Source of the DNA: an uncultured Pseudohongiella sp. | Lineage (GTDB): Bacteria; Pseudomonadota; Gammaproteobacteria; Pseudomonadales; Pseudohongiellaceae | Length of the DNA stretch: 64,000 bases | NCBI GenBank assembly: GCA_965198435.1 | Contig: OZ240664.1 | Coordinates: 966,675 to 1,030,674, forward strand | Direction: 5' to 3' | In this document: positions 8,175 to 48,825 of the stretch, piece by piece | Numbering within the stretch: the stretch's first letter is position 1 | Layout: each line of letters opens with the position of its first letter | Notes under the pieces: generated by a model | Database searches by the model: none | What the model was told of the DNA's origin: nothing | Seen by the model: only the letters and a program-made list of their open reading frames with translations | Program-made: the position numbers and the translations under genes

Positions 8175-8207
8175 CTGGGAATCTGGTTGGTGCTGTCAGG
8201 AAAAATC

Positions 8208-8570: not shown

Positions 8571-8574
8571 TTAA

Positions 8575-8714
8575 GGAACCTCTGATTAATTACCTACGTT
8601 GTTATTACTGTGTTAAAAATCAGCTCAAAATGCGCATTTATGCCCTATAAACTGCGCTTTTTCACTGGTTTTTGCCTTGCACTAACTGCCTTGCAAACAT
8701 TAATCAGAGGCTCC
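8575..8714 (+). mobile_element. MITE-A copy A5 (140 bp, F)
   Basis: TTAA/TTAA flanks. The element end is 4 bp upstream of the phhB TTG start. Confidence 0.9.
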
Positions 8715-17439: not shown

Positions 17440-17676
17440 CCTAATTAGAGGGTTTTAGGCTTGCAGTGCTTCGTTGTATCCTCGCTCGCTCCCGGGTACC
17501 TCGCGCTGCATCGTCTGCATTCTCTCTATAACTTCGCTGACGTTTTTGGGCATGTCGCACTCAATTCCTGGAATACTTTTACTCTAGGATAAGGCTTCTC
17601 AGTTCGGTCTTGCGTTGCATTGCCTAAAATTCTTCGACTCTTTCATTTCAGGTCAGGTCATATACGTTAAGTCCAG

Positions 17677-17827
17677 GGAACCTCTGATTAATTACCTATT
17701 AATTACCTACGTTGTTATTGCAGCGTTAAAAATCATCTCAAAATGCGCATTTATGACCTGTAAACTGCGCTTTTTCGCTGATTTTTGCCTTGCACTAACT
17801 GCCTCGCAAACATTAATCAGAGGCTCC
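17677..17827 (+). mobile_element. MITE-A copy A7 (151 bp, F)
   Basis: Carries one extra subterminal 11-mer (ATTAATTACCT x2). Flanks CCAG/TTAA do not match. Contains the last 3 codons and the TGA stop of ruvX. Confidence 0.9.
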
Positions 17828-18266
17828 TTAAATCGTTGAACCAGTTTCGCAAGATAATTTGAGCTGCAATATCGTCGATGGCAGATTTTTTGTTGATGTT
17901 ACCTTCTTCAATAGCTTGCTCTATAGCTGCTTTCGAAGACAAACGTTCATCCATTCCGAAACTTGGCATGTTAAAGCGACCATTTAGACGATTCCCAAAC
18001 TTTACTGCTCTAGGCAGAAGCTCACTGTCAGAGCCATCCAGATTATAGGGCAGGCCAACCACGAATACGTCCGGCCGCCAATCCTCGATCAATTTTTCAA
18101 TCTGATCCCAATCGGGGATGCCGTCTTTTGCCTTTAATACACATATGGCCTGCGCTGTTCCCGTGATGCTTTGGCCAAATGCTACACCAATTCGCTGAGT
18201 CCCATAATCGAATGCCAGCGCAGCTATAGGTTTCGATCTATCGTTTGGAAAATTTTGCAGGCTCAT
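17817..18266 (-). CDS. ruvX: Holliday junction resolvase-like protein RuvX/YqgF
   Basis: 149 aa with the YqgF family N-terminus (ALAFDYGTQRIGVA). The C-terminal RSL-stop is encoded by MITE A7. Confidence 0.85.
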   Translation of the reverse strand: MSLQNFPNDRSKPIAALAFDYGTQRIGVAFGQSITGTAQAICVLKAKDGIPDWDQIEKLIEDWRPDVFVVGLPYNLDGSDSELLPRAVKFGNRLNGRFNMPSFGMDERLSSKAAIEQAIEEGNINKKSAIDDIAAQIILRNWFNDLRSL

Positions 18267-22357: not shown

Positions 22358-22544
22358 GGAGCCTCTGATTAATGTTTGCGAGGCAGTTAGTGCAAGGCAA
22401 AAATCAGCGAAAAAGCGCAGTTTATAGGCCATAAATGCGCATTTTGAGCGGATTTTTAACGCAGCAATAACAACGTAGGTAATTATTAATAGGTAATTAA
22501 TAGGTAATTAATAGGTAATTAATAGGTAATTAATCAGAGGTTCC
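22358..22544 (-). mobile_element. MITE-A copy A8 (187 bp, R) with expanded subterminal repeat
   Basis: Starts directly after the TAG stop of the upstream GT. Holds a 58-bp array of the AGGTAATTAAT subterminal 11-mer. Confidence 0.9.
22477..22534. repeat. tandem array of the MITE-A subterminal 11-mer
   Basis: AGGTAATTATTAAT (14 nt) followed by 4 x AGGTAATTAAT. Canonical copies have a single unit. Confidence 0.9.
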
Positions 22545-29644: not shown

Positions 29645-29784
29645 GCAACCTCTGATTAATTACCTACGTTGCTATTGCTGCGTTAAAAATCAGCTCAAAA
29701 TGTGCATTTATGACCTATAAACTGCACTTTTTCACTGATTTTTGCCTTGCACTCACTGCCTCGCAAACATTAATCAGAGGCTCC
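29645..29784 (+). mobile_element. MITE-A copy A9 (140 bp, F)
   Basis: TTAG/TTAG flanks. The left end is the variant GCAACC. Lies between the lysA stop (12 bp) and the dapF start (31 bp). Confidence 0.9.
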
Positions 29785-29796
29785 TTAGAGTTTAAC

Positions 29797-31056
29797 TTAT
29801 TCGGGCAGACAGCTCTCTGCTGCCAACAGTTCAGTAACTTCTTCACGCTTTCGCACCAGGTAATGATTCTCTCCATCAACCATAATCTCAGGAGCACGGC
29901 CACGGGTGTTGTAATTGGAACTCATAACAAACCCATAGGCACCTGCAGACCTGACTGCCAATAGATCACCTGCACTAACGACAAGTTCTCTTTCCTTGCC
30001 CAGAAAATCTGCTGACTCACACACAGGGCCTACAACGTCATAGATCTGCGGTTCCCCCTCTCTTCTTTCAACCGGCACTATATCTTGCCATGCACCATAG
30101 AGTGCCGGGCGGAGTAGATCATTCATTGCACCATCTACGATAATGAAGTTCTTATGCTCATTGCATTTTATATATTCGATTTTTGTTACAAATAAACCCG
30201 CATTTGCTGCAATAGATCTGCCTGGCTCTAACAATAATGTTAGCTCTCTTTGTTCGAATCTGTCGCGTACTGCATGAATCAGGTCTGACGGTTGAGGAGG
30301 TTTTTCGTCTCCATAGGTGACGCCAAGTCCACCTCCCATATCGAAGTGCTGCAATGTGATGCCACGTGAGGCCAGCTCATCAACCATGGCCAGCAATCGA
30401 TCGATTGCATCCAGAAACGGCTCAGTGCTGGTAAGCTGGGAACCGATATGGCAATCAATTCCTGTCAGTTCAATGCCACCCATCTCTGCTGCATCACTAT
30501 AGCCTTGTAAGGCTTCATCACTGGCAATTCCAAACTTGTTTTCTTTCAACCCGGTGGAAATATAAGGGTGGGTCCCTGCATCAACATCGGGGTTCACACG
30601 CAGAGAGACAGGCGCCCGCACGCCATGACTGGATGCTATTTCATTAATTCGATTTAGTTCTGCCATCGACTCGACGTTAAAACAATGGATATTGCATTCC
30701 AAAGCACGCTCAATTTCCTGATAAGTTTTACCGAGCCCGGAAAAGATAACTTTTGAGGTGTCACCGCCAGCCGCTAACACCCGTTCCAGCTCGCCGCCAG
30801 AAACAATATCGAATCCTGATCCCAGTCTTGCGAGTAAATTCAAAACCGCCAGATTAGAATTCGCTTTCACGGCATAGCAAATTAAGTGGGGCAGCTCGCC
30901 CAAGGCTTGCTGATAAATCCGATAGTGCCTTTCTAAAGTCGCTCTGGAATATATGAAACAGGGAGTGCCATAGACACGAGCCAACTCTGTAACTGGCACG
31001 TCTTCTGTAAAAAGTGCCTCTGATGCCCCGTTGGGCCGAAAATTAAAATGATCCAT
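29797..31056 (-). CDS. lysA: diaminopimelate decarboxylase
   Basis: 419-aa PLP-dependent group IV decarboxylase with LysA motifs (YAVKAN, GGGLG). Confidence 0.9.
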   Translation of the reverse strand: MDHFNFRPNGASEALFTEDVPVTELARVYGTPCFIYSRATLERHYRIYQQALGELPHLICYAVKANSNLAVLNLLARLGSGFDIVSGGELERVLAAGGDTSKVIFSGLGKTYQEIERALECNIHCFNVESMAELNRINEIASSHGVRAPVSLRVNPDVDAGTHPYISTGLKENKFGIASDEALQGYSDAAEMGGIELTGIDCHIGSQLTSTEPFLDAIDRLLAMVDELASRGITLQHFDMGGGLGVTYGDEKPPQPSDLIHAVRDRFEQRELTLLLEPGRSIAANAGLFVTKIEYIKCNEHKNFIIVDGAMNDLLRPALYGAWQDIVPVERREGEPQIYDVVGPVCESADFLGKERELVVSAGDLLAVRSAGAYGFVMSSNYNTRGRAPEIMVDGENHYLVRKREEVTELLAAESCLPE

Positions 31057-31092
31057 GGATGGTCGGTCTGATTTGTGGGTATCGAAAGAGTA

Positions 31093-31224
31093 CTAGTAGC
31101 GTTGGAAATTCGCTGTAGAGACTTGTTCTGGCCGAGTCAGGCCGCCTTTCTGGCCGCATGCGCCAAGCATCAGCATCAGGCTGGCCAGGCATACAATTCC
31201 AATCGTTGTTGACGTGCGCTTCAT
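31093..31224 (-). CDS. lptM: LptM/YifL-like small lipoprotein (43 aa)
   Basis: My translation is MKRTSTTIGIVCLASLMLMLGACGQKGGLTRPEQVSTANFQRY. It has the lipobox LGAC followed by GQKGGL and lies directly upstream of lysA. It is below the ORF-track length cutoff. Confidence 0.6.
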   Translation of the reverse strand: MKRTSTTIGIVCLASLMLMLGACGQKGGLTRPEQVSTANFQRY

Positions 31225-31496
31225 CGCTATTATTGAGGGTCAGGTACAAAGAACTGGAGATTATACCGCCAGCATGTCCATAAACACAGGTTGTTCTCAA
31301 TTGCTGGCACCAGATAGAAATGCCTTTAGAATATTGATTTTCTTAGCAATTCCGTTTGTCTCAACTGGTCTTGAAAATTGCCTTTTTGATCTCTATATTT
31401 GCCAACTCTTTTAAATTAGATAATTAAGCAAAAAGACAAATTGAGCCCGAAAAAGTGACTCAAATACTCTGCCCAATTCAATTTGACAAATACTAA

Positions 31497-31636
31497 GGAA
31501 CCTCTGATTAATTACCTACGTTGTTATTGCTGCGTTAAAAATCAGCTCAAAATGCGCATTTATGACCTATAAACTGCGCTTTTTCGCTGATTTTTGCCTT
31601 GCACTAACTGCCTCGCAAACATTAACCAGAGGCTCC
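31497..31636 (+). mobile_element. MITE-A copy A10 (140 bp, F)
   Basis: CTAA/CTAA flanks. Sits in the divergent lptM / ABC-transporter spacer, 24 bp upstream of the ABC ATPase ATG. Confidence 0.9.
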
Positions 31637-31659
31637 CTAATACAATATAGTCTTTAACC

Positions 31660-32592
31660 ATGATTGAAATTCAGAATCTGACAAAAAAATTCGAGCAATT
31701 TATTGCGATCGACAACCTAAGCTTCAATGTGCAGGAAGGTGAAGTCCTGGGTTTTCTGGGCCCTAATGGCGCTGGCAAGTCCACCACTATGAAAGTAATT
31801 ACCGGATTCCTGTCACCAACCAGCGGTAGCGTATCAATCGATGGCTTTGATATTGCTGACAACCCTATCGATGCCAAATCTCTAATCGGATATCTACCGG
31901 AGGGTGCACCTTCTTACGGTGATATGACCACCGTGGAATTTTTACGCTTTATTGCACGAGTACGTGGATTCAAAGGTGAGGAAGCGGAGCGAAAGATTGA
32001 GCAGGTTGTAAGAGAAGTAGCGTTGGAGTCTGTGCGCGAGCAGAGAATTGAAACGCTCTCCAAGGGTTTTAAACGTCGAGTTGGCTTGGCACAAGCCATA
32101 ATGCATGATCCCAAAGTACTCATTCTTGATGAGCCAACAGATGGTTTGGACCCGAATCAAAAACACCATGTGCGTGAACTCATTAAAAATCTGGCCAGAG
32201 ACAAAATTGTCATCATCTCCACTCATATCCTGGAAGAGGTAACGGCTGTTTGTAGTAGAGCAATCATTATTGCTAATGGCAGCATTGTTGCTGATGGCAC
32301 GCCCGCCGAATTGGAATCGCAATCACGATATCACCAGGCAGTGAGCGTAAGATTAAGCAAAGACTATGATCTTGCTGCGGACCTTTCCGGAGTATCAGAA
32401 GTCAGCGCAGTTGAAAAAGTCGAAGATGAGGAACTGACTTATACCATCCTTGCCAGCGATAGTGCTTCAATTTTTTCTCAAGTCTCTGAAATTGCGCAGA
32501 ACAATCATTGGCCGGTAACTGAGTTCCATGTTGAACGCGGACAGCTTGAAGATGTGTTTCGCACAGTCACTCAAGCCGGGGAAGGAGTATAA
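31660..32592 (+). CDS. ABC transporter ATP-binding protein (ABC-2 type)
   Basis: Walker A GPNGAGKST, signature LSKGFKRR, Walker B LILDEPT. Confidence 0.85.
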   Translation: MIEIQNLTKKFEQFIAIDNLSFNVQEGEVLGFLGPNGAGKSTTMKVITGFLSPTSGSVSIDGFDIADNPIDAKSLIGYLPEGAPSYGDMTTVEFLRFIARVRGFKGEEAERKIEQVVREVALESVREQRIETLSKGFKRRVGLAQAIMHDPKVLILDEPTDGLDPNQKHHVRELIKNLARDKIVIISTHILEEVTAVCSRAIIIANGSIVADGTPAELESQSRYHQAVSVRLSKDYDLAADLSGVSEVSAVEKVEDEELTYTILASDSASIFSQVSEIAQNNHWPVTEFHVERGQLEDVFRTVTQAGEGV

Positions 32593-32594
32593 TC

Positions 32595-33329
32595 ATGGGG
32601 CATATTACTACCATCTTTAGACGTGAACTTTTGAGTTATTTTGCAACTCCTTTAGCATATATCTTTGTTGTAATTTTTCTCATCACAAATGGAATCTTTA
32701 CCTTTGATATGGGAGGATTCTACATCCGTGGACAAGCTGATTTACTGCCTTTCTTTGGCTTCCATCCATGGCTATATCTTTTTATGGTGCCCGCAATAGC
32801 AATGACCCTTTGGGCTGATGAGCGTAAAACCGGCACCATCGAGCTTCTACTTACCTTGCCAGTTCGTTTGTCAGATGCAGTGCTGGGAAAGTTTCTGGCG
32901 GCATGGGTACTAACTGGCATTGCGTTGCTGCTAACTTTTCCCATCTGGATTACTGTCAACTATTTAGGTGATCCTGATAATGGAGTGATTCTGGCTGCAT
33001 ACATCGGTAGTTGGTTTATGGCCGGTGGCTTTCTTGCAATTGGTTCGTGCATGTCGGCCTGCACCAGGAACTCTGTGATTGCATTTATTCTTACAGTGTC
33101 TATTTGTTTCATATTTGTGATCCTGGGTTCTCCCATATTGCTCAATGCCTTTCCTGCCTGGGTGCCACAGGTGTTAGTCGATGCCTTCGCAGCAATGGGC
33201 TTCCTCACACACTTTGATTCGATCTCAAAAGGTGTGCTGGATATTCGCGATTTCCTTTTCTTCGCAGTCTTCATTGCAGGATGGCTACTGGCCAGCGCTG
33301 TAGTGATCGAAATGAAGAAAGCCAACTAA
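32595..33329 (+). CDS. ABC-2 family transporter permease
   Basis: 244 aa with about 6 TM segments. Probably translationally coupled to the ATPase gene. Confidence 0.75.
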   Translation: MGHITTIFRRELLSYFATPLAYIFVVIFLITNGIFTFDMGGFYIRGQADLLPFFGFHPWLYLFMVPAIAMTLWADERKTGTIELLLTLPVRLSDAVLGKFLAAWVLTGIALLLTFPIWITVNYLGDPDNGVILAAYIGSWFMAGGFLAIGSCMSACTRNSVIAFILTVSICFIFVILGSPILLNAFPAWVPQVLVDAFAAMGFLTHFDSISKGVLDIRDFLFFAVFIAGWLLASAVVIEMKKAN

Positions 33330-33345
33330 AGAGAGAGAAGAGCAG

Positions 33346-35361
33346 ATGAGTAAGAAATTTTTGTTTTCTCCTACAGGTTTGGCTGCCATCGCTGTGGCAT
33401 TGGTTATCAGTGTCGCTGTGATTAGTGTATTCCCCAGCCTGCGAATCGACTTAACTGAGGATCAGCTATACACCCTTTCAGATGGTAGTCGGAACATCGT
33501 TACAAACCTTGATCAGCCAATCGAGCTGATGTTTTTCTATTCAGAGAGTGGGACTGAAGATCAGCCTCAGATTCGCGCCTATGGCACTCGGGTCCAGGAA
33601 TTGTTGCAAGAGATAGTCATCGCGAGTGAAGGCAGCCTGAATCTGAACGTGATTGATCCTGAGCCATTTTCCGAGGATGAAGATTTGGCCCGTCAGTACG
33701 GGATTCAGGCTGTTCCGGTAAGCCAGGGTGGTGAAGAAATCTATTTTGGACTGGCGGTCACACCGGACATAGCGCCTGAAGATGTGAATCCACTAATACC
33801 TCCAGCCATTGAGACTATGCCATTAGTGCGACCAGATCAGGAACAATTCCTTGAATACGAATTCATGAAGATGATCACTACTGTAGCGAATCCAGATCGT
33901 ACAGTGGTAGGACTTATCACGGAGCTTTCAATTGATGGCGGGTTTGATCCGCAATCCGGTCAGGTAACACCTCCATGGTTTGTTATGGAATTTATTCGTC
34001 AGTTGTATGAGGTACAGCGCATCCCGGTAAGCGCTACTGAAATTGATGAAGAGGTTGATATCTTGATGGTAGTGCATCCACAGGACTTGTCGGAGCAACT
34101 GCTTTATGCCATTGATCAGCATGTGATGCGCGGCGGAGAGACATTGGTATTTCTCGATCCTAACGCTGACTCGATGGTATCGTTATCACCACAAGGCGCG
34201 CTGATTCCTGCTGGTATGAGTTCTGATTTACCGGGCTTATTGGAAAGCTGGGGAATTGAATATGCCAACGATCGAGTGCTGACAGACAACGAACTGGCGT
34301 TGCGCGTAAGAATGAGTCAGACAGAACGGCCAATACCACATCTTGGTATGCTGGGTGTGCAGCGGCAGTATTTGACCCGGCATGACATCATTACAAGTCA
34401 GCTGGAAACCATAAACCTGTCTTCGACCGGTGTTATCTCGCAGGCTGAAAACGCTCGTACCACATTTGAGCCATTAATCGTTTCTTCAAGCGACACCATG
34501 TTAATGGACCGAGTATTGTTAGAGAGTGTTACTGATCCTTCGGCGCTGTTCGATGAATTCGAATCAACAAACGAAAGTCATACCATTGCTGCCAGAGTGA
34601 CTGGCATGATTAACAGTGCTTTCCCCAATGGGCGCCCAATGGTAGAAGAAGAGGAACCTGAAACTGGTACGGAAGCTGAAGAGGCAGAGGAGGGGGCAGA
34701 AGCGGCCGCCGACATGTCCAATAATCCAGCCGAACCCGCCGAAGAGCCAGCCGCTGAAGAATCAGTGGTAGAAGAAGCTGCGGAACATATCGCCAGTTCC
34801 AATGGCTCGGTAAACATCGTGATTTATGCAGATTCAGATATGTTAATGGATCGGCTCTGGGTCCAGGTCGCACAATTTCTGGGGCAACGCATTCCACAGC
34901 CATTTGCCAACAATGGGGATCTGTTGATCAACACGCTGGATAATTTAAGCGGGGGCGCTGATCTGGTAAGTATTCGCAGCCGCGGGACTTATTCACGCCC
35001 ATTCACTCGGGTTGTTGATTTGCAGCGGCAGGCAGATGATCGACTGCGAATTGAGGAAGCCGAGTTATTAGATCGCTTGGCAGAAACGGAGGAGTCGCTT
35101 GCTCAACTTAGTCAAGATGGGGAAGGTAATCCGATTGGCCAGATTACGCCAGAGATACAGGCTGAAATTGATCGCTTCAATGAAGAGCTGTTGGACACTC
35201 GCAGACGCTTGCGTGATGTTCAGTTTCAACTGACAGAAGATATAGATCGCTTAGGCAGTTATCTCAAAGCTATCAATACCGCGCTTATTCCCATACTGCT
35301 GACGGTATTGGCTTTATTGGCACATTTTGCTCGGGTTCGCCGCAGAAGCGCTGCACGTTAG
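33346..35361 (+). CDS. GldG-family ABC-transport auxiliary protein
   Basis: 671 aa with N- and C-terminal TM anchors. Its position after the ABC-2 pair fits the GldG-like layout. Has an acidic low-complexity insert (EEEEPETGTEAEEAEEGAE). Confidence 0.65.
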   Translation: MSKKFLFSPTGLAAIAVALVISVAVISVFPSLRIDLTEDQLYTLSDGSRNIVTNLDQPIELMFFYSESGTEDQPQIRAYGTRVQELLQEIVIASEGSLNLNVIDPEPFSEDEDLARQYGIQAVPVSQGGEEIYFGLAVTPDIAPEDVNPLIPPAIETMPLVRPDQEQFLEYEFMKMITTVANPDRTVVGLITELSIDGGFDPQSGQVTPPWFVMEFIRQLYEVQRIPVSATEIDEEVDILMVVHPQDLSEQLLYAIDQHVMRGGETLVFLDPNADSMVSLSPQGALIPAGMSSDLPGLLESWGIEYANDRVLTDNELALRVRMSQTERPIPHLGMLGVQRQYLTRHDIITSQLETINLSSTGVISQAENARTTFEPLIVSSSDTMLMDRVLLESVTDPSALFDEFESTNESHTIAARVTGMINSAFPNGRPMVEEEEPETGTEAEEAEEGAEAAADMSNNPAEPAEEPAAEESVVEEAAEHIASSNGSVNIVIYADSDMLMDRLWVQVAQFLGQRIPQPFANNGDLLINTLDNLSGGADLVSIRSRGTYSRPFTRVVDLQRQADDRLRIEEAELLDRLAETEESLAQLSQDGEGNPIGQITPEIQAEIDRFNEELLDTRRRLRDVQFQLTEDIDRLGSYLKAINTALIPILLTVLALLAHFARVRRRSAAR

Positions 35362-36689
35362 ATAACGCGCTCTGCATCCTCTGGGGTGCGCACTGGAATG
35401 CGCACCCTGATATGAGTGCCTTCCCCTGGCTCGCTGCTGATCTGTAGTTCTCCCCCGTGGGCCTCCGCAATCAGGCGACTCAAGTAGAGTCCCAGGCCGA
35501 AGCCGCCTGTATTGCGCTGGCGGGAACTGTCTGCTCGATAGAAGGGTTCGCTGATGTGGGGCAAGTGCTCTTCTGCGATGCCTTCGCCTTGATCGATTAC
35601 TTCGATAGCAGCATCCTCTTCCACCCAACTAAGTTTGACCTGGATAGGATTGGATTCACCATGACGAATGGCGTTATTTACTAGATTGGTAAGCAGCAGC
35701 CGTATTCGTAAACGGTCTATGAGGATTTCTTGGTCATTATCAGGTACATCAACTTCGATGCCCCCCTCGTAGCTTTCGAATTGATCGGCCATCCCCGTGA
35801 TGAATTCGGCCATATAAACAGGTTCTTCAGAAAGCAAAGCGTGATCATCATTGAGCCGTTCTGCCTCAATCCAGTCTGAGATCAGTAGATCAATTTCATT
35901 GATATCTTCCCGTAGCTGCTCTTTCTCGGTACTGGAAGGCATAAACTCCAATCGCAGTTTAGCTTTGGTTATCGGTGTGCGTAACTCATGGCTTATAGCT
36001 AATAGAAGCTGTCGTTTTGCTTCCAGCATAGACTGCAATGAATCAGCCATATGGTTAATACTTTCTGTGAGTTCTCCCAATTCATCCTGGCGATTACTTT
36101 CTACTCTGTACCCCAAATCACCTTTCTCGATTCGTTCGGCCCCACGGCGCAGCATTCTTACCGGTGCCAGCAATCGATTTACCATAATGTAGTTCAGAAA
36201 CAGGACGAGTATTGCCAGCGCAGAACCTACATACAAAACAAAAACATTAATGCGGTTCTCGCTTTGAAAACGTGGGTATAGAAAGAACTCATACCCACCT
36301 CGATTAGCATGAATGATCCCCTCGTTATTCACTGTTCTTACTTCTGCATCTGAAGAAAGAGTACGGTCAAAGGTGGAGTCGTCAACATTCAAACGATTAT
36401 CGGGATCTGAACTCCAACGCATGATTGGATTGCGAATATTGATTGTCCAATTCAACTCGCCTGCGAGGCGCATTGCATTACTTAAGTTTGGCGGCGTACC
36501 AATGTCTTTAATAATCGATTCAATATTACGTGTGAAGAAGTCTGGAATTGTATCAATTGAATTTTCGTTTTGATTTATTGCTCGCAACGAGAACGAAACA
36601 ATTATGAAGAAACTGACGACGGTAAATCCGAAGATAAACAGCAATCGCAGAAACAACGATTTTTTGACTTGATCGACAAGGGTGGTCAT
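35358..36689 (-). CDS. sensor histidine kinase (HAMP-HisKA-HATPase)
   Basis: H-box SHELRTPIT, N-box NLVNNAIRH, G-box GGFGLGLYL. Confidence 0.85.
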   Translation of the reverse strand: MTTLVDQVKKSLFLRLLFIFGFTVVSFFIIVSFSLRAINQNENSIDTIPDFFTRNIESIIKDIGTPPNLSNAMRLAGELNWTINIRNPIMRWSSDPDNRLNVDDSTFDRTLSSDAEVRTVNNEGIIHANRGGYEFFLYPRFQSENRINVFVLYVGSALAILVLFLNYIMVNRLLAPVRMLRRGAERIEKGDLGYRVESNRQDELGELTESINHMADSLQSMLEAKRQLLLAISHELRTPITKAKLRLEFMPSSTEKEQLREDINEIDLLISDWIEAERLNDDHALLSEEPVYMAEFITGMADQFESYEGGIEVDVPDNDQEILIDRLRIRLLLTNLVNNAIRHGESNPIQVKLSWVEEDAAIEVIDQGEGIAEEHLPHISEPFYRADSSRQRNTGGFGLGLYLSRLIAEAHGGELQISSEPGEGTHIRVRIPVRTPEDAERVI

Positions 36690-37384
36690 ATCTGCTCACC
36701 GACAAAAGTGTAGCCACGTCCCCAAACCGTTTTAATGAAACGGGGTGTTTTAGAAGTGTCTTTTAACTTATGTCGGAGGCGGCTTACCAATGTGTCCACA
36801 GCTCGAGAGAAAAGTTCTGCATCGATACCGCGTAATCGATTCATCAACTCATCGCGGGTAAAAGTTTTATTTGGAAACTGCATAAAGAGAATGAGTAGCT
36901 CATACTCCATGGTAGTCAGTTCCAGCACATCACCATCGAGTTTTACTTCTCTGCGGGAGACATCAACTTCCAACCCATTGATAGGTTTGATAGACCGTAC
37001 GCCATTATCATCGCTGCTACGGCGCAGAATATTGTGAATACGAGCAACAAGTTCTCTTGGTTCGAATGGTTTGGGCAAATAGTCATCAGCGCCAAGCTCC
37101 AGTCCGACGATTCGGTCGGTTACTTCGGCATGGGCCGTGAGCATGAGTATCGGAAGCTGGCCATAGATTGAAGACTTGGCACGAATCTCCCGGCAAATTT
37201 CAAACCCATCTTTTTCTGGCAACATGACATCCAGAATCAAGAGATCAGGTTTTACTTTTTTTATGAGCTCGAAGCCTTTGCCTGGCGCAAGAGCGACGCG
37301 TACCTTCATATCATAACGTTCGAGATACTGAGTGAGAAGCTCGCCCAGTTTTTCGTCGTCATCAATAATCAGTATTTGTTTCAT
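36686..37384 (-). CDS. OmpR-family response regulator
   Basis: Starts MKQILIIDDD and has a winged-helix C-terminus (RGYTF). I preferred the ATG at 37384 to the upstream TTG at 37417. Confidence 0.85.
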   Translation of the reverse strand: MKQILIIDDDEKLGELLTQYLERYDMKVRVALAPGKGFELIKKVKPDLLILDVMLPEKDGFEICREIRAKSSIYGQLPILMLTAHAEVTDRIVGLELGADDYLPKPFEPRELVARIHNILRRSSDDNGVRSIKPINGLEVDVSRREVKLDGDVLELTTMEYELLILFMQFPNKTFTRDELMNRLRGIDAELFSRAVDTLVSRLRHKLKDTSKTPRFIKTVWGRGYTFVGEQI

Positions 37385-37493
37385 TTTATTACTATTGTTG
37401 GATAGACAGCCTGGCAATAGTACGAATTCGCTCTATCGAAAGCAAATATCCAGGTACCTTCCCATCGACTGAACAGGTATGTTTTTGCGCAAT

Positions 37494-38434
37494 TTATCCG
37501 CAGAAAAAACAGCCTTGATCATACACTTCTTGCTTGAGTAGATGTCCGTGCTTGTTAACCCAACTCCCATCCTTTAGGTCGCTCGCAAGTGCTTGTAATC
37601 CATTGTGTAAATCGTGTTCGTCTAATTTGTTTTGTGAAAGGTTGAAATTCCATTAAGATGACCTTCTTTGAGGTAGTTCTCCGGCTGCACCCAATACGCC
37701 ATCGCAGAATGATCCTGCAAATCTTTGGGCAATGGAAAGAGTTCCTGGGAAGAGCACTTATTTAACTCGCTCTCTGCGTAATTTCTTAGGGAACCTCTGA
37801 TTAATTACCTAGGTTGTTATTGCTGTGTTAAAAATCAGCTCAAAATGCGCATTTATGACCTATAAACTGCGCTTTTTCGCTGATCTTTGCCTTGCACTAA
37901 CTGCCTCGCAAACATTAATCAGAGGCTCCTTGGTTGATGTACGGAAAGGCTCAGGACTTTATCACTATCCTTAAACTGAGGAATGTAATCAAATAACTGG
38001 AAGCTGGCTTGGAATTCGATATCAAAGGCAAACATCACTAAAAGTCCATTGCTGATGACTCGAATTGCTTCCATTATCCCTTTTTGCCAATCCTGGAAGT
38101 GATGGGTACACAAGGTCATGACTGCTGCATCGAAGCGGTCATTACTGAAAAGAAGATTTTCAGCAATGCCATCATGACAACAGAGAGTTAGATGCTGTTT
38201 CGCCTGTCCACGCATAACAGAGGAAGGTTATACTGCGTTCACTTTCAGACCCAAACCCAAACCCCAACCCAGGCTCGGCGAGTCCACAACTGCAGTTTCC
38301 TGTTCCAGCTCCGATGTCATAAGTGAAGAGCCTTTACGTATAGCGCATAAATCGCTTAAGCGAGTGGCAATTCGAGGATGCGCTGCGCGAGTTGAGAAAC
38401 AGGTCTTACCAATCTGGTTGTAGCGGGCTGGCAT
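37494..38434 (-). pseudogene. class I SAM-dependent methyltransferase, disrupted by MITE A11, frameshifts and a nonsense codon
   Basis: The N-terminus YNQIGKTCFSTR..GSSL is in one frame and motif I DIGAGTGN is shifted. There is an in-frame TAA in VNAV*PSSVM. MITE A11 lies inside the gene, and the C-terminal part (AMAYWVQPENYL .. DLKDGSWV) continues beyond it. Confidence 0.8.
37790..37929 (+). mobile_element. MITE-A copy A11 (140 bp, F) inserted in a coding sequence
   Basis: Flanks TTAG/TTGG (1 mismatch). Gene-derived sequence lies on both sides. Confidence 0.9.
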
Positions 38435-38576
38435 AGCTTAGAAGCAGCTTAGCATGGTCGGTTTCTTAAAAACTGATTCAACAAATTATTGGCTTGAATC
38501 TTGTGGAAAGATGCCCATAAATAGGGTCTACAATAGTGAAAATGTGCTCTTGACTCATCGTCATGGATATCGATCA

Positions 38577-39647
38577 ATGAAAGGTTTCTATTCAGCGCTA
38601 CTGGGCGGCACCCTTGCCTTGATACTGTCGGGCCTTGTGGCAGCTCAAACTCAGCCGTATTCAGAGTTCGCAACCAACGACGAGGCCAACAATATTGAGG
38701 TGTTTAAACGCACCAGCCCTTCAGTTGTGAATATTACCAATGCCAGATTGGTGCGCTCGTTTTACTCACTCAATCCCCAGGAGGTTCCACAGGGTAGCGG
38801 TACAGGATTTGTTTGGGACAAGGGGGGTCATATCGTGACTAATTATCATGTGGTTCAACAGGCAGACAGGGTGCTGGTAACGATGCAGGATGGCACCACC
38901 TATGCTGCCCGCGCAGTGGGATTGGACCCGAGTCGTGACCTTGCAGTATTAAAAATCGATGCCGATCAGGAGCTGATTCCAGTGATTCCTGGAGATTCTT
39001 CTTTATTGGAAGTGGGCCGCAAAGTAATCGCCATCGGCAACCCCTTTGGTCTCGATACCACAATGACCGTTGGCGTGGTGAGCGCGCTGGGACGGGAAAT
39101 TGATTCTGTTAATCGGCGTACGATCCGCGATGTCATTCAAACTGATGCCGCAATCAACCCAGGCAATTCAGGCGGCCCGCTTTTAAATTCTCTTGGACAG
39201 CTTATTGGGGTTAACACAGCCATCTATAGCCCAAGTGGTGGCAGTTCAGGTATTGGTTTTGCTATTCCGGTGAACACGGTTAGCAGTGTGGTTCCACAGC
39301 TCATTCAATATGGCAGAGTGCAGACCCCTATCTTGGGTGTGACTCGAATACCTCAGCCTGATTACTATCGGCGGTTGTGGGGTATTGAAGGTGTCATTGT
39401 GATGGATACAGTGGAAGGCACAGATCCTGAGCGCCTGGGCATGCGTGGACTTGCCCGTTCCGAGCGAGGGAGGATCGTTTTGGGAGACGTGATCGTTGAA
39501 GTGGACGGTGAACCTGTCCGTAATGAGAACGACCTGGCTGGCATTATTGAGCAAAAACAACCCGGCGATACTGTGAGAGTTCTCACGCAGCGTGACAATA
39601 ACGTATTAAGTTATGAGATCAAGTTGCAGGCACCGCCCAATCCTTAA
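38577..39647 (+). CDS. HtrA/DegP-family periplasmic serine protease with one PDZ domain
   Basis: Signal peptide [23 protein letters not shown]. Catalytic motifs TNYHVV, DLAVLKI and GNSGGPL. The start was trimmed to the ATG at 38577. Confidence 0.85.
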
Positions 39648-41041
39648 CGGGTTTGCAATTTTTTCCGAGCAGAATCTGCTGCTCGCTTGACTTGTTCAGG
39701 TGCAGTCGCGCCAAAGTGGTTTCTCGCGGCAAGAGAACCTTCAAGAGTGAGAACCTCGAACACATCTTCAGTAATTACATCACTACACGATTGCAGTTGA
39801 CTTAATTCAAGCTCAGAAAGATCCAGCCCAAGCTCAATACCTGATTTTACGGCATTGCCAACCACTTCATGAGCATCGCGAAAAGGGAGTCCTTTCTTCA
39901 CCAGATAATCAGCCAGGTCTGTTGCAGTTGCATAACCCAGCCTGGTCGACTGTAACATAGCTTCCTTATTGCAAACTATGGCAGGTACCATGCTCGCATA
40001 AGCGTAAAGACAATCTTCCAGGGTATCCAATAAATCAAACAATGGCTCTTTGTCTTCTTGATTATCTTTGTTGTAGGCTAAAGGCTGTGACTTCATCAGT
40101 GTTAGCAAAGACATCAGGTGGCCAGTTACACGACCAGTTTTACCTCGAATCAGTTCAGGTACGTCGGGATTTTTCTTTTGCGGCATTATCGAAGAGCCAG
40201 TACAGAATCGATCAGGCAATTCTATAAAGTTAAATTGCGCGGAAGTCCACAGCACCAGCTCTTCAGAAAAACGAGATAGATGAGTCATGATAAGACTGCC
40301 AGCGGCTGCCAACTCGATAGCGAAATCTCGATCGCTCACTGAATCCAGAGAATTATTGCTAGGGGCATCGAAACCCAGTAACTCCGCAGTGTAGTTTCTG
40401 TCGATTGGGAAAGTCGTTCCCGCAAGTGCAGCTGCACCCAGTGGCGAAACATTCACCCGTTTACGACAGTCTTGCAGCCTGCTGAAATCGCGATCCAGCA
40501 TTTCGAACCAGGCCAGCATATGATGGCCGAAACTAACCGGTTGTGCAGTTTGCAAATGGGTGAAACCAGGCATTATTGTTTCTGCTTCACGCTCAGCTAA
40601 GTCAACCAGATTGGTTTGAAGTTGACTGAGTAAACCACTTAGCGCATCAATTCTATCTCTGACATAGAGGCGAATATCTGTGGCCACCTGGTCGTTGCGC
40701 GACCTTCCGGTGTGTAGTTTTTTACCTGCTTCACCTATGCGATTGCTAAGTGCAGCTTCGATGTTCATGTGAACATCTTCCAGCTCAACAGACCACTCAA
40801 ACCGATTTGCGGCAATATCTTCTCGAATAGCAATCAATCCGGATTCGATTTGTTGATACTCTTCTGCGGTCAAAACACCAACTTTGTTTAACATACCCGC
40901 ATGAGCAATTGAGCTTTCGATATCATATTCATAAAGCCGCTGATCGAATTGCACGGAGGCCGTAAATTGCTCGACGAACTCGTCAGTGGCTTCACTGAAC
41001 CTTCCGCCCCACAATTTGTCGGTTTTCTTATTCTCGCCCAT
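39644..41041 (-). CDS. argH: argininosuccinate lyase
   Basis: WGGRFSE .. [12 protein letters not shown] signature. I chose the ATG at 41041. The GTG at 41062 used by the ORF track is an alternative. Confidence 0.9.
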
Positions 41042-41224
41042 GGCTCTGTCGGTGTTTAACACATGTGAAAAGGGCAGGTGAGTATACAGGAAGCCTGATA
41101 AATGAAGAAGCTGTCAACGATTTGGTGAATTTCGGCCTCAGACAAAGTCAGTGCAATGCCGTAGAATACCGGCCTCGGCTACTGGAGAAGGACTATGTGA
41201 GCCGAATCATTACACGAGAAATCC

Positions 41225-42154
41225 ATGAATCGACTTCGCATTGCAACTCGAGAAAGCCCACTGGCCCTTTGGCAAGCTCACTATGTAAAGACAGCTTTAC
41301 AGGCGCAGCATAAAGAGCTAGCTGTGGAGTTAGTACCCATGACAACCCGAGGAGATCAGATACTGGATTCTCCTTTGGCCAAAGTTGGCGGCAAAGGCTT
41401 GTTCGTTAAGGAACTTGAATGTGCAATGTTGGCTGATGAAGCTGACATCGCTGTGCATTCGATGAAAGATGTACCTATGGAGTTTCCTGATGGTTTGGGT
41501 TTGGCTGTAATTTGCGAACGCGAAGACCCGAGCGATGCCTTAGTTTCCAATCAATATCAGAGCCTGGATGCTTTGCCTGAAGGTGCCAGAGTCGGAACAT
41601 CCAGTTTTCGGCGACAATGCCAACTTAAACGGCTGCGTCCTGACCTTACAATTCTGGATTTACGTGGCAATGTCGGCACTCGTTTATCAAAACTGGATGC
41701 CGGTGATTATGATGCAATCATCCTTGCCGCCGCTGGCTTATTACGATTGGAGTTATCTGACCGAATTGTGCAACGTCTGGATAGTGATCTTGTATTGCCT
41801 GCAGGTGGGCAGGGAGCAATTGGCATCGAGTGTCGTACAGAAGACATTAAAATACTGCAGTTAGTGGATTGCCTTCATCACGGTGGAACCGCGTCTCGGG
41901 TAACCGCCGAACGTGCCGTGAATGCTAAACTGCAAGGAGGCTGTCAGGTACCTATTGCCAGTTTTGCTGAATTAAGGGGGGACAATTTGTATCTTCGTGC
42001 ATTAGTAGGGTCTTTGGATGGAAGTCAGATTTTACGTACGGAGCGATTAGGTAACATGCATGATGCTGAACAGCTTGGCATTCAAGCTGCTGAAGACTTG
42101 TTAGCACAGGGAGCCGGTAAGATTCTTGAATCAATCTCAGCACCGGCTGATTAA
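41225..42154 (+). CDS. hemC: hydroxymethylbilane synthase (porphobilinogen deaminase)
   Basis: [15 protein letters not shown] .. GNVGTRL signature, 309 aa. Confidence 0.9.
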
Positions 42155-42966
42155 TGGCAATGGCAAAAAGAGAAACAGGCATTGGTGAGTTATCCGCACT
42201 AACGGTGCTTGTAACACGGCCAGCCCATCAACAAGAAAGTCTTGTTCATTCAATAGAAAATCTAGGTGGTAAAACCATCAGTATGCCGCTTATTGATATC
42301 TTTCCTTTGTCTGAAGATGAAATCATAAGGACCTCATCGAATGCCATTAAGAATCTCGATCAGTTCGAGACACTCATTTTTGTAAGCAGCAATGCGGCGC
42401 GCATTGGTGGTGAAATGATCGACGCCTACTGGCCACAATTTCCAGCAGGCATTACTGTCATTGGTATTGGCCAAACTACATCGCGTGCTACCGTGGAGTG
42501 GCTGAATTGTTCTGTGGTAACGCCAGATCAGGGAAATGATAGTGAAGCGGTGCTGGCACTCCCTGAACTGCAAGAGGTTGCCGAGAAACGGATAGGAATA
42601 GTATGTGGAATAGGCGGTAGAGAATTACTCGCCAATGAACTATCCAGGCGCGGTGCAATAGTTGAAATCATCGAGGTATATTGCCGGGAGTCTCGTCATT
42701 ACAATCCAGAACAAGTCAATGAGTTACTTATGGATTCTGCTTGTAATTCAATAACCGTTCATAGCGGCGAGTCATTGCAACAGTTGATCGCATTGAGTGG
42801 AAATAACATAAGCCGGATCTCTCTGTTACCATTAGTGGTGCCATCCGCCAGAGTGCAAAATCACGCTCAAGAGGCTGGCTTCTCAAGAGTTATTAATGCT
42901 GTGGGCGCTGATGATCGGGCAATGACTCAAGCTCTGCAGCAAATTGCTGCAGACCGTGTTTTATAG
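42154..42966 (+). CDS. hemD: uroporphyrinogen-III synthase
   Basis: 270 aa overlapping the hemC stop. HemD-like (VLVTRP) and in the hemCDXY context. Confidence 0.8.
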   Translation: MAMAKRETGIGELSALTVLVTRPAHQQESLVHSIENLGGKTISMPLIDIFPLSEDEIIRTSSNAIKNLDQFETLIFVSSNAARIGGEMIDAYWPQFPAGITVIGIGQTTSRATVEWLNCSVVTPDQGNDSEAVLALPELQEVAEKRIGIVCGIGGRELLANELSRRGAIVEIIEVYCRESRHYNPEQVNELLMDSACNSITVHSGESLQQLIALSGNNISRISLLPLVVPSARVQNHAQEAGFSRVINAVGADDRAMTQALQQIAADRVL

Positions 42967-42980
42967 AGCCGACAAGCTAA

Positions 42981-43194
42981 GGAAGCTCTGATTAATGTTG
43001 GCGAGGCAGTCGGTGCACCAAAAGTAGCCGCTTCAGGCGAGGCAAAAATCGGCGAGCCGAAGTGTAGCGAAAACGGCACCCGCAAGGTGAGCAGCTTTAG
43101 CTGCGTAAAAAGCGCAGCTAATAACGCATAAATACGCACTTTGAGCTGATTTTTAACGCAGTAATGGCAACGCAGATAATTAATCAGAGGTTCC
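42981..43194 (-). mobile_element. MITE-A copy A12, divergent long variant (214 bp, R)
   Basis: Canonical ends (GGAAGCTCTGATTAAT .. ATTAATCAGAGGTTCC) with CTAA/CTAA flanks. About 74 bp of extra G+C-richer internal sequence includes a second GCGAGGCA segment. Confidence 0.8.
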
Positions 43195-43233
43195 CTAAGT
43201 AAGTGCAATAATCTATTTTAAAAGAGATTAACT

Positions 43234-44343
43234 GTGGCAGATAAACCGGAAACGCCAAAAATTCTTGAAGAAATATCTAAGGGAACCAATCCTAAATCTA
43301 GCGGAGGAAGTTCCCGTTCGCAAAAAAATGCCCGTCGTCGGTTTCTGATAATCCTGTTGTTGTTTCTACCTCTTGTGGCAGGTATGGCCTATTTAGGTTA
43401 TACCCAATTTAATTTACTCACAGAGCTGGCAGACCTGCAGCAGCAAAATGCTACCCTCAATGAGTCTGTGGCCGGGTATCAAACAGAACTTACTTCACTG
43501 CGCTCTCAAATAAATAGTATGCCTGAGCAAGTTACCGTAGACACAGGAGCTATAGATGCCTTGTCTTCCAGACTCGGCACAGATATTGACATGCTTGCTC
43601 AAGAAATTGTCCGGCTTGATGCTCAGCAATCAAAGATTGCGACGCCGCAAAATAGCCAATGGAAAATCTTTGAAGCAAACTATTTTGTTCAGTTGGCTAA
43701 TCGTAAACTGCAATTAGAAGGTGATTCGCTATCAGCCATTGAGTTGTTAGAGAAAGCAGATGCCGCATTATTGGAATCGGGATCCAACGCCGTGTTGCGA
43801 GCACGGCAGGCATTAGCCGACGACATTGCCATGTTAAGAGTTTTGGAACTGCTCGATAGGGAAGGCTTATTCATTCGAATTGATAATTTGAGTGATCAGA
43901 TTAGCGGGATTGATCTGTTAACTTCCATGCGTGAAAGGTTGCAAAATCGATCTGAGTCAACTGATCAGCAATCAGACTCTGAGACTTCAGGATTTATCGA
44001 TAGCAGTATGGCGTTTCTTAGCAGTGTGTTTGTGTGGCGAACCTGGGAAGACTCGCCAGAAGCAATGTTGGCGTCAGGCCAGGAAGCAATCATACAGCAG
44101 CGCGTTCAGTTATCAGTGGAGCAGGCTAAAGTCGCCTTACTCAATAGCAACGCCGCACTTTATCAACGCAGCCTGGGTGACATTTCTGACTGGATTCGGC
44201 AATACGCGACTTCTGACTCTGTTGCCGGGCAGCAAGTGTTAGCTGAACTGGCAGAACTGATGCAGATTGAAATCGATTCAGCATTGCCAGAACTCAGCCA
44301 ATCAATGGCTTCCTTGCAACAACTCACGGCGACACTGCAATAA
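43234..44343 (+). CDS. hemX: HemX family protein (uroporphyrinogen-III C-methyltransferase-annotated)
   Basis: 369 aa with an N-terminal TM segment and a coiled-coil-rich body. Position after hemD. Confidence 0.75.
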   Translation: MADKPETPKILEEISKGTNPKSSGGSSRSQKNARRRFLIILLLFLPLVAGMAYLGYTQFNLLTELADLQQQNATLNESVAGYQTELTSLRSQINSMPEQVTVDTGAIDALSSRLGTDIDMLAQEIVRLDAQQSKIATPQNSQWKIFEANYFVQLANRKLQLEGDSLSAIELLEKADAALLESGSNAVLRARQALADDIAMLRVLELLDREGLFIRIDNLSDQISGIDLLTSMRERLQNRSESTDQQSDSETSGFIDSSMAFLSSVFVWRTWEDSPEAMLASGQEAIIQQRVQLSVEQAKVALLNSNAALYQRSLGDISDWIRQYATSDSVAGQQVLAELAELMQIEIDSALPELSQSMASLQQLTATLQ

Positions 44344-44349
44344 GGAATT

Positions 44350-45606
44350 ATGATTAGGCTGTTCATACTCAGTTTACTTGCTATCGTACTTGCGCTTTGG
44401 GTAACGCTTTATGTTGGCTTCCCAACTGATCCTGGTTATCTCCTGATCGCTTTCGGTAATGTCACATTTGAAACCAGTTTGTTTGCGTTATTGGTGGCAG
44501 CCGTCGTGCTTTATGCCACCGCTAGAATTCTGTTACTCGTTCTGCACTGGGTCAATCCGATGAAGTTGTTGGCAGTTGGGCGCGAGTTGAATTCGCAGCG
44601 CAAGGCCAGGGCACGAAGTAATACTACAGAAGGTTTACTGGCCTTAGCACGTGGAAACTGGCAGGCGAGCCTTAAGTTCTTACAAAAAGGCATCACGGAA
44701 AAGGACGCGACTGTTGTAAACAACCTGGCTGCTGCCTATGCCGCGCATCAATTAGGTCACCGAGACACCTGGGTTGAACTGTTAGAATCGGCTGAAGTTA
44801 ATTACCCTACTGCCCGCTCAACCATCAATTATGTGAAGGCACAACTACATTTTAAATCTGGTCAACTGGAACAAAGTCTTGCAGTTCTTGAAGAACTGAA
44901 AAAAAATGCCCTGAACGATGGCAATTTGCTTGGCCTGTTAAAAGAAGTATATGTGCAACTTGATGACTGGCAGCACCTGGAGGGGTTACTGCCAAGTCTG
45001 GAGAAGAGCAAGTTACTGGACAGTGAAGACCTCGTTCGTATTCAGAAACGCATCTTCATGGAAAAACTGTATGCATGCTTTAATACTGTCAATGGCGGTG
45101 ATAGCAACGCGTTAGGAGAAATGAAAACGCTCTGGAAAAAAGCGCCGACCAGTTTTCAAAAAGACGGGAAGGTTGTTTCCCATTATGCTGATCTGCTCAT
45201 TCAGTTAGGGGAAAAACAAGACGCAGCGAAAACCATAGAAACGGCTTTGAGTAGAATCTGGGATTCTAACCTGGTTCAGTTGTACGGCGCTAAGGAATAT
45301 GGGATCAGTGCGCAACAGCTATTGGTAGCCGAGAATTGGTTAAAAGCGAATCCTGCTGATGCGGCGCTATTGCTGAGTTTGGGGCGTATCAGTATGCGCA
45401 ACCAATTGTGGGGAAAGGCAAAAGAGTACTATGAAGCGAGTATTAAAATTACTCCATCCGCTGAAGCCTACGGCGAACTCGGCCGTCTCATGAAACATCT
45501 AGGCGATATTGAAGCGAGTGAAGCGTATTTAAAAAACTATGGAGACTTGATGGGGTCTTCTCTTCCAGAGTTGCCGATGCCTAATCCAGATCAGGTAACT
45601 CATTAG
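44350..45606 (+). CDS. hemY: HemY family protein
   Basis: 418 aa with two N-terminal TM segments plus TPR-like repeats. Position after hemX. Confidence 0.8.
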   Translation: MIRLFILSLLAIVLALWVTLYVGFPTDPGYLLIAFGNVTFETSLFALLVAAVVLYATARILLLVLHWVNPMKLLAVGRELNSQRKARARSNTTEGLLALARGNWQASLKFLQKGITEKDATVVNNLAAAYAAHQLGHRDTWVELLESAEVNYPTARSTINYVKAQLHFKSGQLEQSLAVLEELKKNALNDGNLLGLLKEVYVQLDDWQHLEGLLPSLEKSKLLDSEDLVRIQKRIFMEKLYACFNTVNGGDSNALGEMKTLWKKAPTSFQKDGKVVSHYADLLIQLGEKQDAAKTIETALSRIWDSNLVQLYGAKEYGISAQQLLVAENWLKANPADAALLLSLGRISMRNQLWGKAKEYYEASIKITPSAEAYGELGRLMKHLGDIEASEAYLKNYGDLMGSSLPELPMPNPDQVTH

Positions 45607-45629
45607 CTCTTTGGCTCACTAGAAAGTAG

Positions 45630-45770
45630 GGAGCCTCTGATTAATGTTTGCGAGGCAGTTAGTGCAAGGCAAAAATCAGCGAAAAAGCGCAGTTTATAGG
45701 TCATAAATGCGCATTTTGAGCTGATTTTTAACGCAGCAATAACCAACGTAGGTAATTAATCAGAGGTTCC
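45630..45770 (-). mobile_element. MITE-A copy A13 (141 bp, R)
   Basis: Flanks GTAG/TTAG (1 mismatch). The ubiD stop codon (TAA, 45771-45773) directly abuts the element. Confidence 0.9.
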
Positions 45771-47243
45771 TTAGTCTTTATCGATTCCCAGCTCTTCCCA
45801 TAGTTCATCAACGCGGGCTTTTACTTCATCACTCATGGTAATGGGTTTGCCCCATTCTCGTTCTGTCTCAGCAGGCCATTTATTGGTGGCATCCAATCCC
45901 ATCTTGGAGCCTAGTCCAGCCACCGGTGAAGCGAAATCAAGATAATCTATCGGGGTATTGTCGATCATAACGGTATCGCGAATTGGATCCATTCGGGTTG
46001 TGATTGCCCAGATGACATCTTCCCATTGTCGAATATCCACATCATCATCAGCGACAATGATAAATTTTGTATACATGAACTGTCGTAAAAAAGACCACAC
46101 GCCCATCATGACCCGCTTGGCATGACCGGGATACTGTTTCTTCATACTCACAATTGCGAGTCTGTAGGAACAGCCTTCAGGAGGCAGATAGAAATCGACA
46201 ATCTCTGTAAACTGTTTTTGTAATAAAGGCACGAATACTTCATTTAACGCGACCCCCAGCATTGCAGGCTCATCTGGCGGACGACCGGTGTAGGTACTGT
46301 GATAGATAGGATCTTTGCGATGGGTTATTCGAGTTACCGTAAATACTGGAAACTGTTCAGTTTCATTATAGTAACCAGTATGGTCACCATAGGGTCCTTC
46401 TTCAGCAGCCTCATCTGGATGAATAACACCTTCCAGCACAAACTCCGCACTTGCCGGTACTTGCAAGTCATTAGTTTGTGATTGCACTACTTCTGATTTG
46501 CTGTTTCTCAATAAGCCCGCGAAGGCATATTCAGACAAAGTGTCCGGTACCGGTGTCACTGTGGCGAGAATCGTCGCCGGGTCAGCACCTATTGCGATAG
46601 AAACAGGAAATGGTTCGCCGGGATGCTGCAGTTGCCAGTCACGGAAATCCAATGCACCACCACGGTGGGATAGCCAACGCATGATCAGCTTATTCTTCCC
46701 AAGCAGCTGCATGCGGTAGATACCGAGATTCTGCCGTTCTTTTTCAGGCCCTTTAGTAATGACCAACGGCCACGTCACCAGCGGCGCCACATCGCCAGGC
46801 CAACAGGTTTGAATAGGCAGCTGAGTGAGATCAATTGCATTGCCCTCGACTACGATCTCCTGACACGGTGCAGACTTTTTTACTGCAGGAGAAATGTTTA
46901 AAACATTTTTATAGCTCGGCAGACTTTGCCAGAGATCTTTCCAGCCGGAAGGGGGCGAGGGCTCCTTTAAGAAAGCTAATAATTTGCCAACGTCTCTTAA
47001 TCCTTCCAGATTTTCTTGCCCCATTGCCAGTGCGATACGGCGAGTATTGCCAAACAAGTTCGCAAGCAGAGGAATTGATGACCCTTTGGGATTTTCAAAT
47101 AACAATGCAGGGCCACCAGACCGCAAAGTACGGTCTGATATTTCAGTAATTTCGAGGTAAGGATCAACTTCAGCAGAAATGCGTTTAAGTTCGCCTTCCT
47201 GCTCCAGAAGTTCGATGAAGTCGCGCAGATCTTTGAATGCCAT
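45771..47243 (-). CDS. ubiD: 4-hydroxy-3-polyprenylbenzoate decarboxylase
   Basis: 490-aa UbiD-family sequence throughout. Downstream of rho, as in E. coli. Confidence 0.9.
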
Positions 47244-48672: not shown

Positions 48673-48825
48673 AGAACCTCTGATTAATTACCTACGTTGT
48701 TATTGCTGCATTAAAATGCTGCATTAAAAATCAGCTCAAAATGCGCATTTATTAGCTATAAACTGCGCTTTTTCGCTGATTTTTGCCTTGCACTAACTGC
48801 CTCGCAAACATTAATCAGAGGCTCC
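48673..48825 (+). mobile_element. MITE-A copy A14 (153 bp, F)
   Basis: CTAA/CTAA flanks. Has a 13-bp internal duplication (GCTGCATTAAAAT) and the left-end variant AGAACC. Lies 118 bp upstream of the rho ATG. Confidence 0.9.

Follow-up and report, generated by a model that had tools for sequence, protein, structure and literature searches.

The Correia elements of Neisseria and the Rickettsia palindromic elements are short, hairpin-forming repeats that occur in hundreds of copies, mostly between genes and now and then within them; Correia elements duplicate TA, while Rickettsia palindromic elements often lie in frame and are kept in functional proteins. In Pseudomonas syringae pv. phaseolicola, a MITE named MITEPsy1 has been attributed to the IS5-family element ISPsy2 (PMC3189936). 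It carries the repeat ends GGAAGGTCTGAAAAAGCC and GTATCCTCTGAAAAAGCC, produces 4-nt duplications at CTAG or YTAA, has been observed to transpose, and has truncated genes by insertion into their coding sequence, namely avrPphE/hopX1 and PSPPH_0770 (PMC3189936). For IS5, 4-bp duplications and a strong preference for 5'-YTAR-3' have been described (PMC5009759, PMC10359306).

Here we describe an insertion of this kind in a stretch of DNA of 64,000 nucleotides, which as a whole is referred to as the window. The element concerned, A11, is a copy of a repeat family that we call MITE-A, and its host gene codes for a SAM-dependent methyltransferase. We are confident that A11 represents a YTAR-targeted MITE insertion with a 4-bp duplication into this gene, which is now a pseudogene; the features of the locus are collected in Table 1.

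A scan of the window for the terminal inverted repeat (TIR) motif GGAACCTCTGATTAAT, with up to 3 mismatches tolerated, returned 32 matches against 0.46 expected, and these form 16 inverted pairs, i.e. 16 copies of MITE-A spanning positions 332-60114. The 16-bp TIRs (GGAACCTCTGATTAAT / GGAGCCTCTGATTAAT) are present at both ends of every copy, 11 of the 16 copies are exactly 140 bp long once oriented and aligned, and the mean divergence from the family consensus is about 1.7%. Flanking 4-bp duplications are perfect in ten copies and carry one mismatch in four more, and the left flank fits YTAR in 13 of the 16. MITE-A thus combines all the features by which MITEs are recognised, namely a short non-coding body, TIRs, a target-site duplication of fixed length and dispersed, near-identical copies. 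As single-stranded DNA, A11 forms one long hairpin (-28.5 kcal/mol, z = -7.35), and alone among the copies it is bordered on either side by a long open frame. No Rfam family matched positions 37300-38600. A promoter/terminator scan likewise returned nothing exceeding the shuffled expectation, so that we make no claim about the downstream response regulator and kinase genes.

Several other copies are worth recording in their own right. Their density in the window amounts to one copy per 4 kb, and A3, A4 and A5 cluster inside 2 kb (6678-8714), where A3 and A5 share TTAA flanks by chance and so mimic a 2-kb composite element. Beside their left repeat, A7 (17677-17827) and A8 (22358-22544) carry 2 and 5 tandem copies, respectively, of the 11-bp unit ATTAATTACCT; A14 (48673-48825) is a length variant with a 13-bp internal duplication, and A12 (42981-43194) has diverged and reaches 214 bp through about 74 bp of additional internal sequence. 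The flanks of A7, CCAG (17673-17676) and TTAA (17828-17831), do not match at all; a recombination event joining two copies, or a deletion next to the element, may explain this better than decay alone. A13 (45630-45774) sits on the stop codon of a UbiD-family gene (L001 counterpart at about 1030-1033; L001 is the comparator contig introduced below), and since its target CTAA includes TAA, the duplication keeps the stop of that gene. Every YTAR tetramer includes TAA or TAG, which may bias the MITE-A family toward gene ends.

Table 1. Coordinates of the methyltransferase pseudogene, its lesions and element A11 (positions in the window)
Feature	Position	Strand	Basis or remark
Methyltransferase pseudogene, 259 codons (class I SAM-dependent, Methyltransf_11 type, 3EGE-like)	37494..38434	-	Orthologues, Pfam, synteny
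1-nt deletion	38319..38320 (about)	-	Versus both orthologues; DIGAGTGN shifted out of frame
Hexanucleotide repeat, TTGGGT on coding strand, 3.8 copies	38245..38271 (repeat 38249-38271)	-	Orthologue comparison
19-nt insertion in TTGGGT repeat	38263-38245	-	Frame restored after about 17 shifted codons
Nonsense TAA; GAG or GAA in orthologues	38228..38230	-	Invariant Glu of AVEPS motif
A11 plus duplication	37933-37790	-	Product truncated
Tandem duplication ACAAA-ACAAA, +5 nt	37626..37635	-	Frameshift after ...GISTFHK
1-nt deletion at or adjoining T run	37502..37509 (about)	-	Frameshift 7 codons ahead of original end
Original stop lost, TGC; TGA or TAA in orthologues	37489..37491	-	DNA alignment
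MITE-A copy A11	37790..37929	+	140 bp, non-coding; 3/140 positions off 16-copy consensus
A11 left TIR	37790..37805	+	GGAACCTCTGATTAAT
A11 right TIR	37914..37929	-	GGAGCCTCTGATTAAT read inwards; holds TGA 37921-37919
A11 duplication copy, ancestral TTAG	37786..37789	+	Coding strand CTAA; CTA = Leu162
A11 second duplication copy, TTGG (mutated)	37930..37933	+	Coding strand CCAA; fragment reads Pro

The interrupted gene extends on the minus strand from an ATG at 38434 to its present last stop at 37496-37494. The frame that opens at this ATG ends at the TAA at 38230-38228, and a further minus-strand ORF (38215..37919) ends in ...LSVHQPRSL at a TGA (37921-37919) within the right TIR of A11. When conceptually repaired, the ORF (262 aa) scored 42.7 bits against Pfam Methyltransf_11 (PF08241; cut-off 21.2), while no NCBIfam model reached its cut-off. 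Intact 259-aa orthologues recovered by a database search share 70%, 70% and 62% identity with the repaired product (coverage 99-100%). One intact orthologue, P0001, matches PDB 3EGE over residues 5-256 (E = 1.3e-56), and since this match covers nearly the whole protein, the part beyond the A11 junction belongs to the same fold; the likeness of P0001 to 3EGE thus includes the C-terminal part past the MITE. 3EGE is a structural-genomics entry described as a 'putative methyltransferase from antibiotic biosynthesis pathway'; its function is uncharacterised, and hence it suggests no substrate for the lost gene. SAM-binding motif I (DxGxGxG) is still encoded as DIGAGTGN, yet out of frame in the pseudogene, where it falls between the 1-nt deletion and the 19-nt insertion; the sequence is a relic of the methyltransferase family and not a functional member of it.

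The two sides of A11 belong to one and the same protein. The fragment upstream of the element aligns with residues 68-161 of P0001 (E = 3e-51) and the downstream fragment with residues 163-216 (E = 1e-23), the duplicated tetramer encoding the single residue between them. In an alignment of 17 sequences (the window and 16 orthologues) no gap occurs through the junction, where the window reads VHQ-P-RNYAESELN and the orthologues VHQ-L-RDYVEAELN. Both sides therefore match one protein family contiguously rather than two unrelated proteins, and the suggestion made earlier from the letters of the window, that the far side is the C-terminal part of the same methyltransferase, is borne out. The earlier note had also described a methyltransferase remnant that ends as ..VHQPRSL inside the TIR, which is the ORF located above, and had found that deletion of the element plus 4 bp opens the frame; this read-through was reproduced exactly, the frame running on as ..VHQP-RNYAESELNKCSSQELFPLPKDLQDHSAMAYWVQPENYLKEGHLNGISTFHKTN to a stop after removal of the 144 nt. 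Although 144 nt is a multiple of 3, the in-frame TGA of the TIR means that the product of the interrupted gene is truncated.

A related genome provides the empty site itself. The order trypsin/PDZ protease, methyltransferase, OmpR-type response regulator and histidine kinase is common to the window, to L001 (the contig encoding P0001, from an ENA metagenome assembly) and to L002-L005 (the contigs encoding P0003, of which L005 stems from an uncultured Pseudohongiella sp. chromosome, OZ253535.1). The orthologues in this shared neighbourhood, 70% and 62% identical and from uncultured Pseudohongiella-like genomes, carry a single TTAG at the very point where the window has TTAG-MITE-TTGG. In a DNA alignment against the orthologous loci, the window is longer by exactly 144 nt at A11. 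At this position L001 reads gta cat caa CTA Aga gat, with a single CTAA on the coding strand, i.e. TTAG on the plus strand, and the ancestral target was thus TTAG, a YTAR site. The flanks of A11, TTAG at 37786-89 and TTGG at 37930-33, match in 3 of 4 bases; the former copy is unchanged, whereas the latter underwent a later A>G change, after which the upstream fragment reads Pro (CCA) instead of Leu162 (CTA). The 4-bp duplication that had been read from the TTAG/TTGG pair as a mark of real transposition is therefore correct, with the refinement that the two tetramers are not equivalent. The same applies to the reconstruction of the empty site from the window: its frame stood, but the better version removes the TTGG copy and yields VHQ-L-RNY, with Leu as in the orthologues. 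With real empty sites in a related genome, this reconstruction no longer depends on the window alone.

Colinearity with L001 extends over 17.5 kb (29.2-46.8 kb of the window) at about 85% nucleotide identity; L001 is the nearest comparator, at only this level of DNA identity. It is broken at five MITE-A copies (A9-A13, 29645-45770), all of which are absent in L001, and the target sites of A10-A13 are single-copy there, so that presence and absence of MITE-A differ between the two genomes. An uninterrupted allele as envisaged in the earlier note therefore exists in L001, which is intact and has a single TTAG, whereas none was found at strain level by exact look-up of the response regulator of the window (two starts) or of a 98-aa gene fragment. 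Exact 22-mers of MITE-A had no match in genome representatives or JGI metagenomes, and the repeat was likewise missing from 80 further genomes, other Pseudohongiella assemblies among them, over the 921 kb of their loci that were covered. This absence implies that the family expanded in the lineage of the window after its split from the nearest sampled relative, and together with the absence of A9-A13 in L001 it points to a recent, lineage-specific MITE-A burst.

Compared with L001 and L002, the methyltransferase gene in the window has seven lesions, that is the A11 insertion and six others (Table 1). These account for all the signs of decay that had been noted previously: the in-frame TAA between VNAV and PSSVM, which replaces a Glu that is identical in all aligned orthologues; the two frameshifts, one being the 1-nt deletion near the motif I region and the other the 19-nt insertion at the repeat; and the lesion suspected near the C-terminus, which resolves into the 5-bp tandem duplication, the second 1-nt deletion and the loss of the original stop. 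In the shifted C-terminal frame the window reads ..LFFLRIN, against YLFLRIN in the orthologues. The decay is also visible in the substitutions. At the amino-acid level the methyltransferase is 73% identical to its L001 counterpart, compared with 93% for the kinase, 96% for the regulator and 95.5% for the protease. Changes on the window lineage are distributed over codon positions 1:2:3 as 20:25:31, those on the L001 branch as 17:8:29, and the second-position excess on the window branch is significant (Fisher p = 0.003); in the three neighbouring genes, second-position changes are rare (6/85, 3/51 and 5/28). The branch-specific dN is 0.103 for the window versus 0.049 for L001. The second-position excess indicates that the pseudogene has evolved under relaxed constraint.

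With regard to the question whether A11 killed the gene or arrived later, two ages can be compared. By distance-based branch estimates, the window branch carries an excess dN of about 0.054, which can be taken as a measure of the neutral time elapsed after inactivation (the window and L001 differ at synonymous sites by about 0.74-0.82). A11 with its duplication shows 4 departures from expectation in 148 sites (0.027), where a divergence of 0.054 would predict eight; a count of four or fewer has a Poisson probability of about 0.10. This point estimate favours an arrival of A11 in a gene that was presumably dead already, and it is an evenly balanced proposition that the MITE was such a passenger. 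In line with this, A11 is as near to the consensus (3/140) as the other copies are on average, the gene has accumulated six independent lesions besides its excess dN, and A11 alone among the 16 copies lies well inside coding sequence; on the other hand, the confidence intervals of the two ages overlap. It is possible as well, if somewhat doubtful, that the insertion was the first, inactivating event and that the remaining lesions followed. With A11 in place, the protein ends near residue 164 out of 259, and the divergence of the element and the excess dN of the gene are statistically compatible at the Poisson probability given above. Against this order of events, the point estimate makes the element about half as old as the decay, and the avoidance of coding sequence by the other 15 copies suggests that insertions are tolerated mainly where they are harmless, which fits a gene that was already dead. 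A stronger version of the passenger reading, according to which parsimony counts placed the death of the gene long before the MITE, was withdrawn as biased, the synonymous sites of the outgroup being saturated (pS about 0.83).

As to the mechanism, we infer both the transposase family and the mode of mobilisation of A11. The element would be a non-autonomous DNA transposon whose mobility depends on a DDE transposase acting in trans, most probably one of IS5 type. Integration would have proceeded by a staggered cut at TTAG (YTAR) in codon 162 of the 259-codon methyltransferase gene, and gap repair would then have duplicated the 4 bp. Element and duplication together add 144 nt, with the in-frame TGA of the TIR truncating the product; the gene is a pseudogene that evolves without constraint, and one of the duplicated tetramers has since mutated from TTAG to TTGG. 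The host is an uncultured Pseudohongiella-like gammaproteobacterium, and MITE-A expanded there after the split from the nearest sampled relative.

A full-length parent element was sought through paired ends 600-3000 bp apart, unpaired ends and relaxed ends with matching duplications; neither the window nor the retrieved loci (about 1.5 Mb) yielded one, and the search returned only neighbouring MITE copies and ordinary genes. The IS5-type assignment is an indirect one, made from the duplication length, the target motif and repeat ends that partly resemble those of MITEPsy1/ISPsy2. Duplication of 4 bp at a YTAR target, which characterises the IS5 group, is found both in the left flanks described above and at the ancestral TTAG of A11. 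It is conceivable, though unlikely, that a transposase outside the IS5 family mobilises MITE-A, for example one of IS701, which also makes 4-bp YTAR duplications. Such a source would agree with the lack of a parent element bearing these ends, and neither the duplication length nor the target motif by itself singles out one family; however, the repeat start GGAA..TCTGA resembles that of MITEPsy1, which is attributed to the IS5-family ISPsy2, and no literature match joined IS701 and YTAR. A literature search with the MITE-A repeat sequence itself returned unrelated primers only. We retain an IS5-type transposase as the most probable source of mobility. The reading that the open frame across the junction arose by chance, or that the 140 bp are an assembly artefact or a repeat other than a transposon, and hence that no gene was really interrupted, is refuted by the orthologue alignments and the L001 site; nothing but the imperfect duplication of A11 speaks for it, and against it stand the matches of both sides to adjacent orthologue residues (E = 3e-51 and 1e-23), the exact 144-nt difference from a syntenic empty site and the same ends and 4-bp duplications at the other 15 copies.

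The ends and the core of MITE-A also have a wider distribution. Among the matches listed, more than 120 JGI metagenome contigs contain paired ends of the type CCTCTGATTAAT...ATTAATCAGAGG with a spacing of 95-125 bp; these ends continue to GGAA/TTCC, lie between YTAR duplications and enclose several unrelated internal cores. Judged by these sequences, they look like a widespread MITE superfamily with one type of end. Elements with 75-80% identity to the MITE-A core occur in Halomonas sp. PA16-9 (NZ_CP040452.1, about 1107721-1107825), on a Pseudomonas veronii plasmid (LT599585.1, 144475-144597) and on a P. cerasi plasmid. The Halomonas copy has ends as in MITE-A and a TTAA duplication, and the P. 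veronii copy combines the MITE-A core with clearly different ends (CAGGCTGTTGAAGAAC), also between TTAA flanks, so that the core is better conserved than the ends. One could speculate, though we regard it as improbable, that MITE-A is a branch of a very widespread, undescribed superfamily of 120-150-bp MITEs whose members would have GGAACCTCTGATTAAT ends and YTAR duplications in common across many environmental bacteria but interchangeable cores; in Pseudomonas plasmids the MITE-A core is joined to quite different ends. If this were true, transposase systems might exchange the hairpin core as a module, or the core might be maintained because it has a function itself, and MITE-A might number on the order of a thousand copies in its host as the result of a recent burst.

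Overall, the A11 locus demonstrates at the level of single bases that MITE-A is a real transposon, since an empty site, a YTAR duplication and a frame restored to the orthologous residue are found together. It further settles, for the other 15 copies as well, the boundaries of the element and the chemistry of its insertion, and it documents the loss of a methyltransferase gene in a lineage with MITE expansion, which is useful for annotation and for dating the burst. The understanding of MITEs or of pseudogenes is not changed by this case: the insertion is well documented but ordinary, a familiar kind of element with familiar behaviour. More unusual are the copy density of MITE-A and the wide spread of its repeat ends.

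Set against the known systems, A11 differs from the Rickettsia palindromic elements in that its host gene is dead and the insert brings an in-frame stop. With IS5, MITE-A shares the 4-bp duplication, the strong YTAR preference and a repeat end that starts with GGAA; IS5, however, is about 1.2 kb long and has its own DDE transposase, whereas MITE-A encodes nothing, and the search described above recovered no cognate transposase gene for it. The comparison with MITEPsy1 shows differences in length (140 bp in MITE-A, 100 bp in MITEPsy1), in the unrelated internal sequence and in the continuation of the repeat, which is ..TTAAT in MITE-A and ..AAAAAGCC in MITEPsy1. Transposition of MITEPsy1 has been seen experimentally, while MITE-A is known here from sequence alone, and its 16 copies per 64 kb far exceed the 6 copies per genome of MITEPsy1. 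What the two have in common is that both are small, non-coding elements with TIRs and 4-nt duplications at sites of the CTAG/YTAA type, that their repeats start with GGAA..TCTGA, and that both reside in gammaproteobacteria of the order Pseudomonadales.
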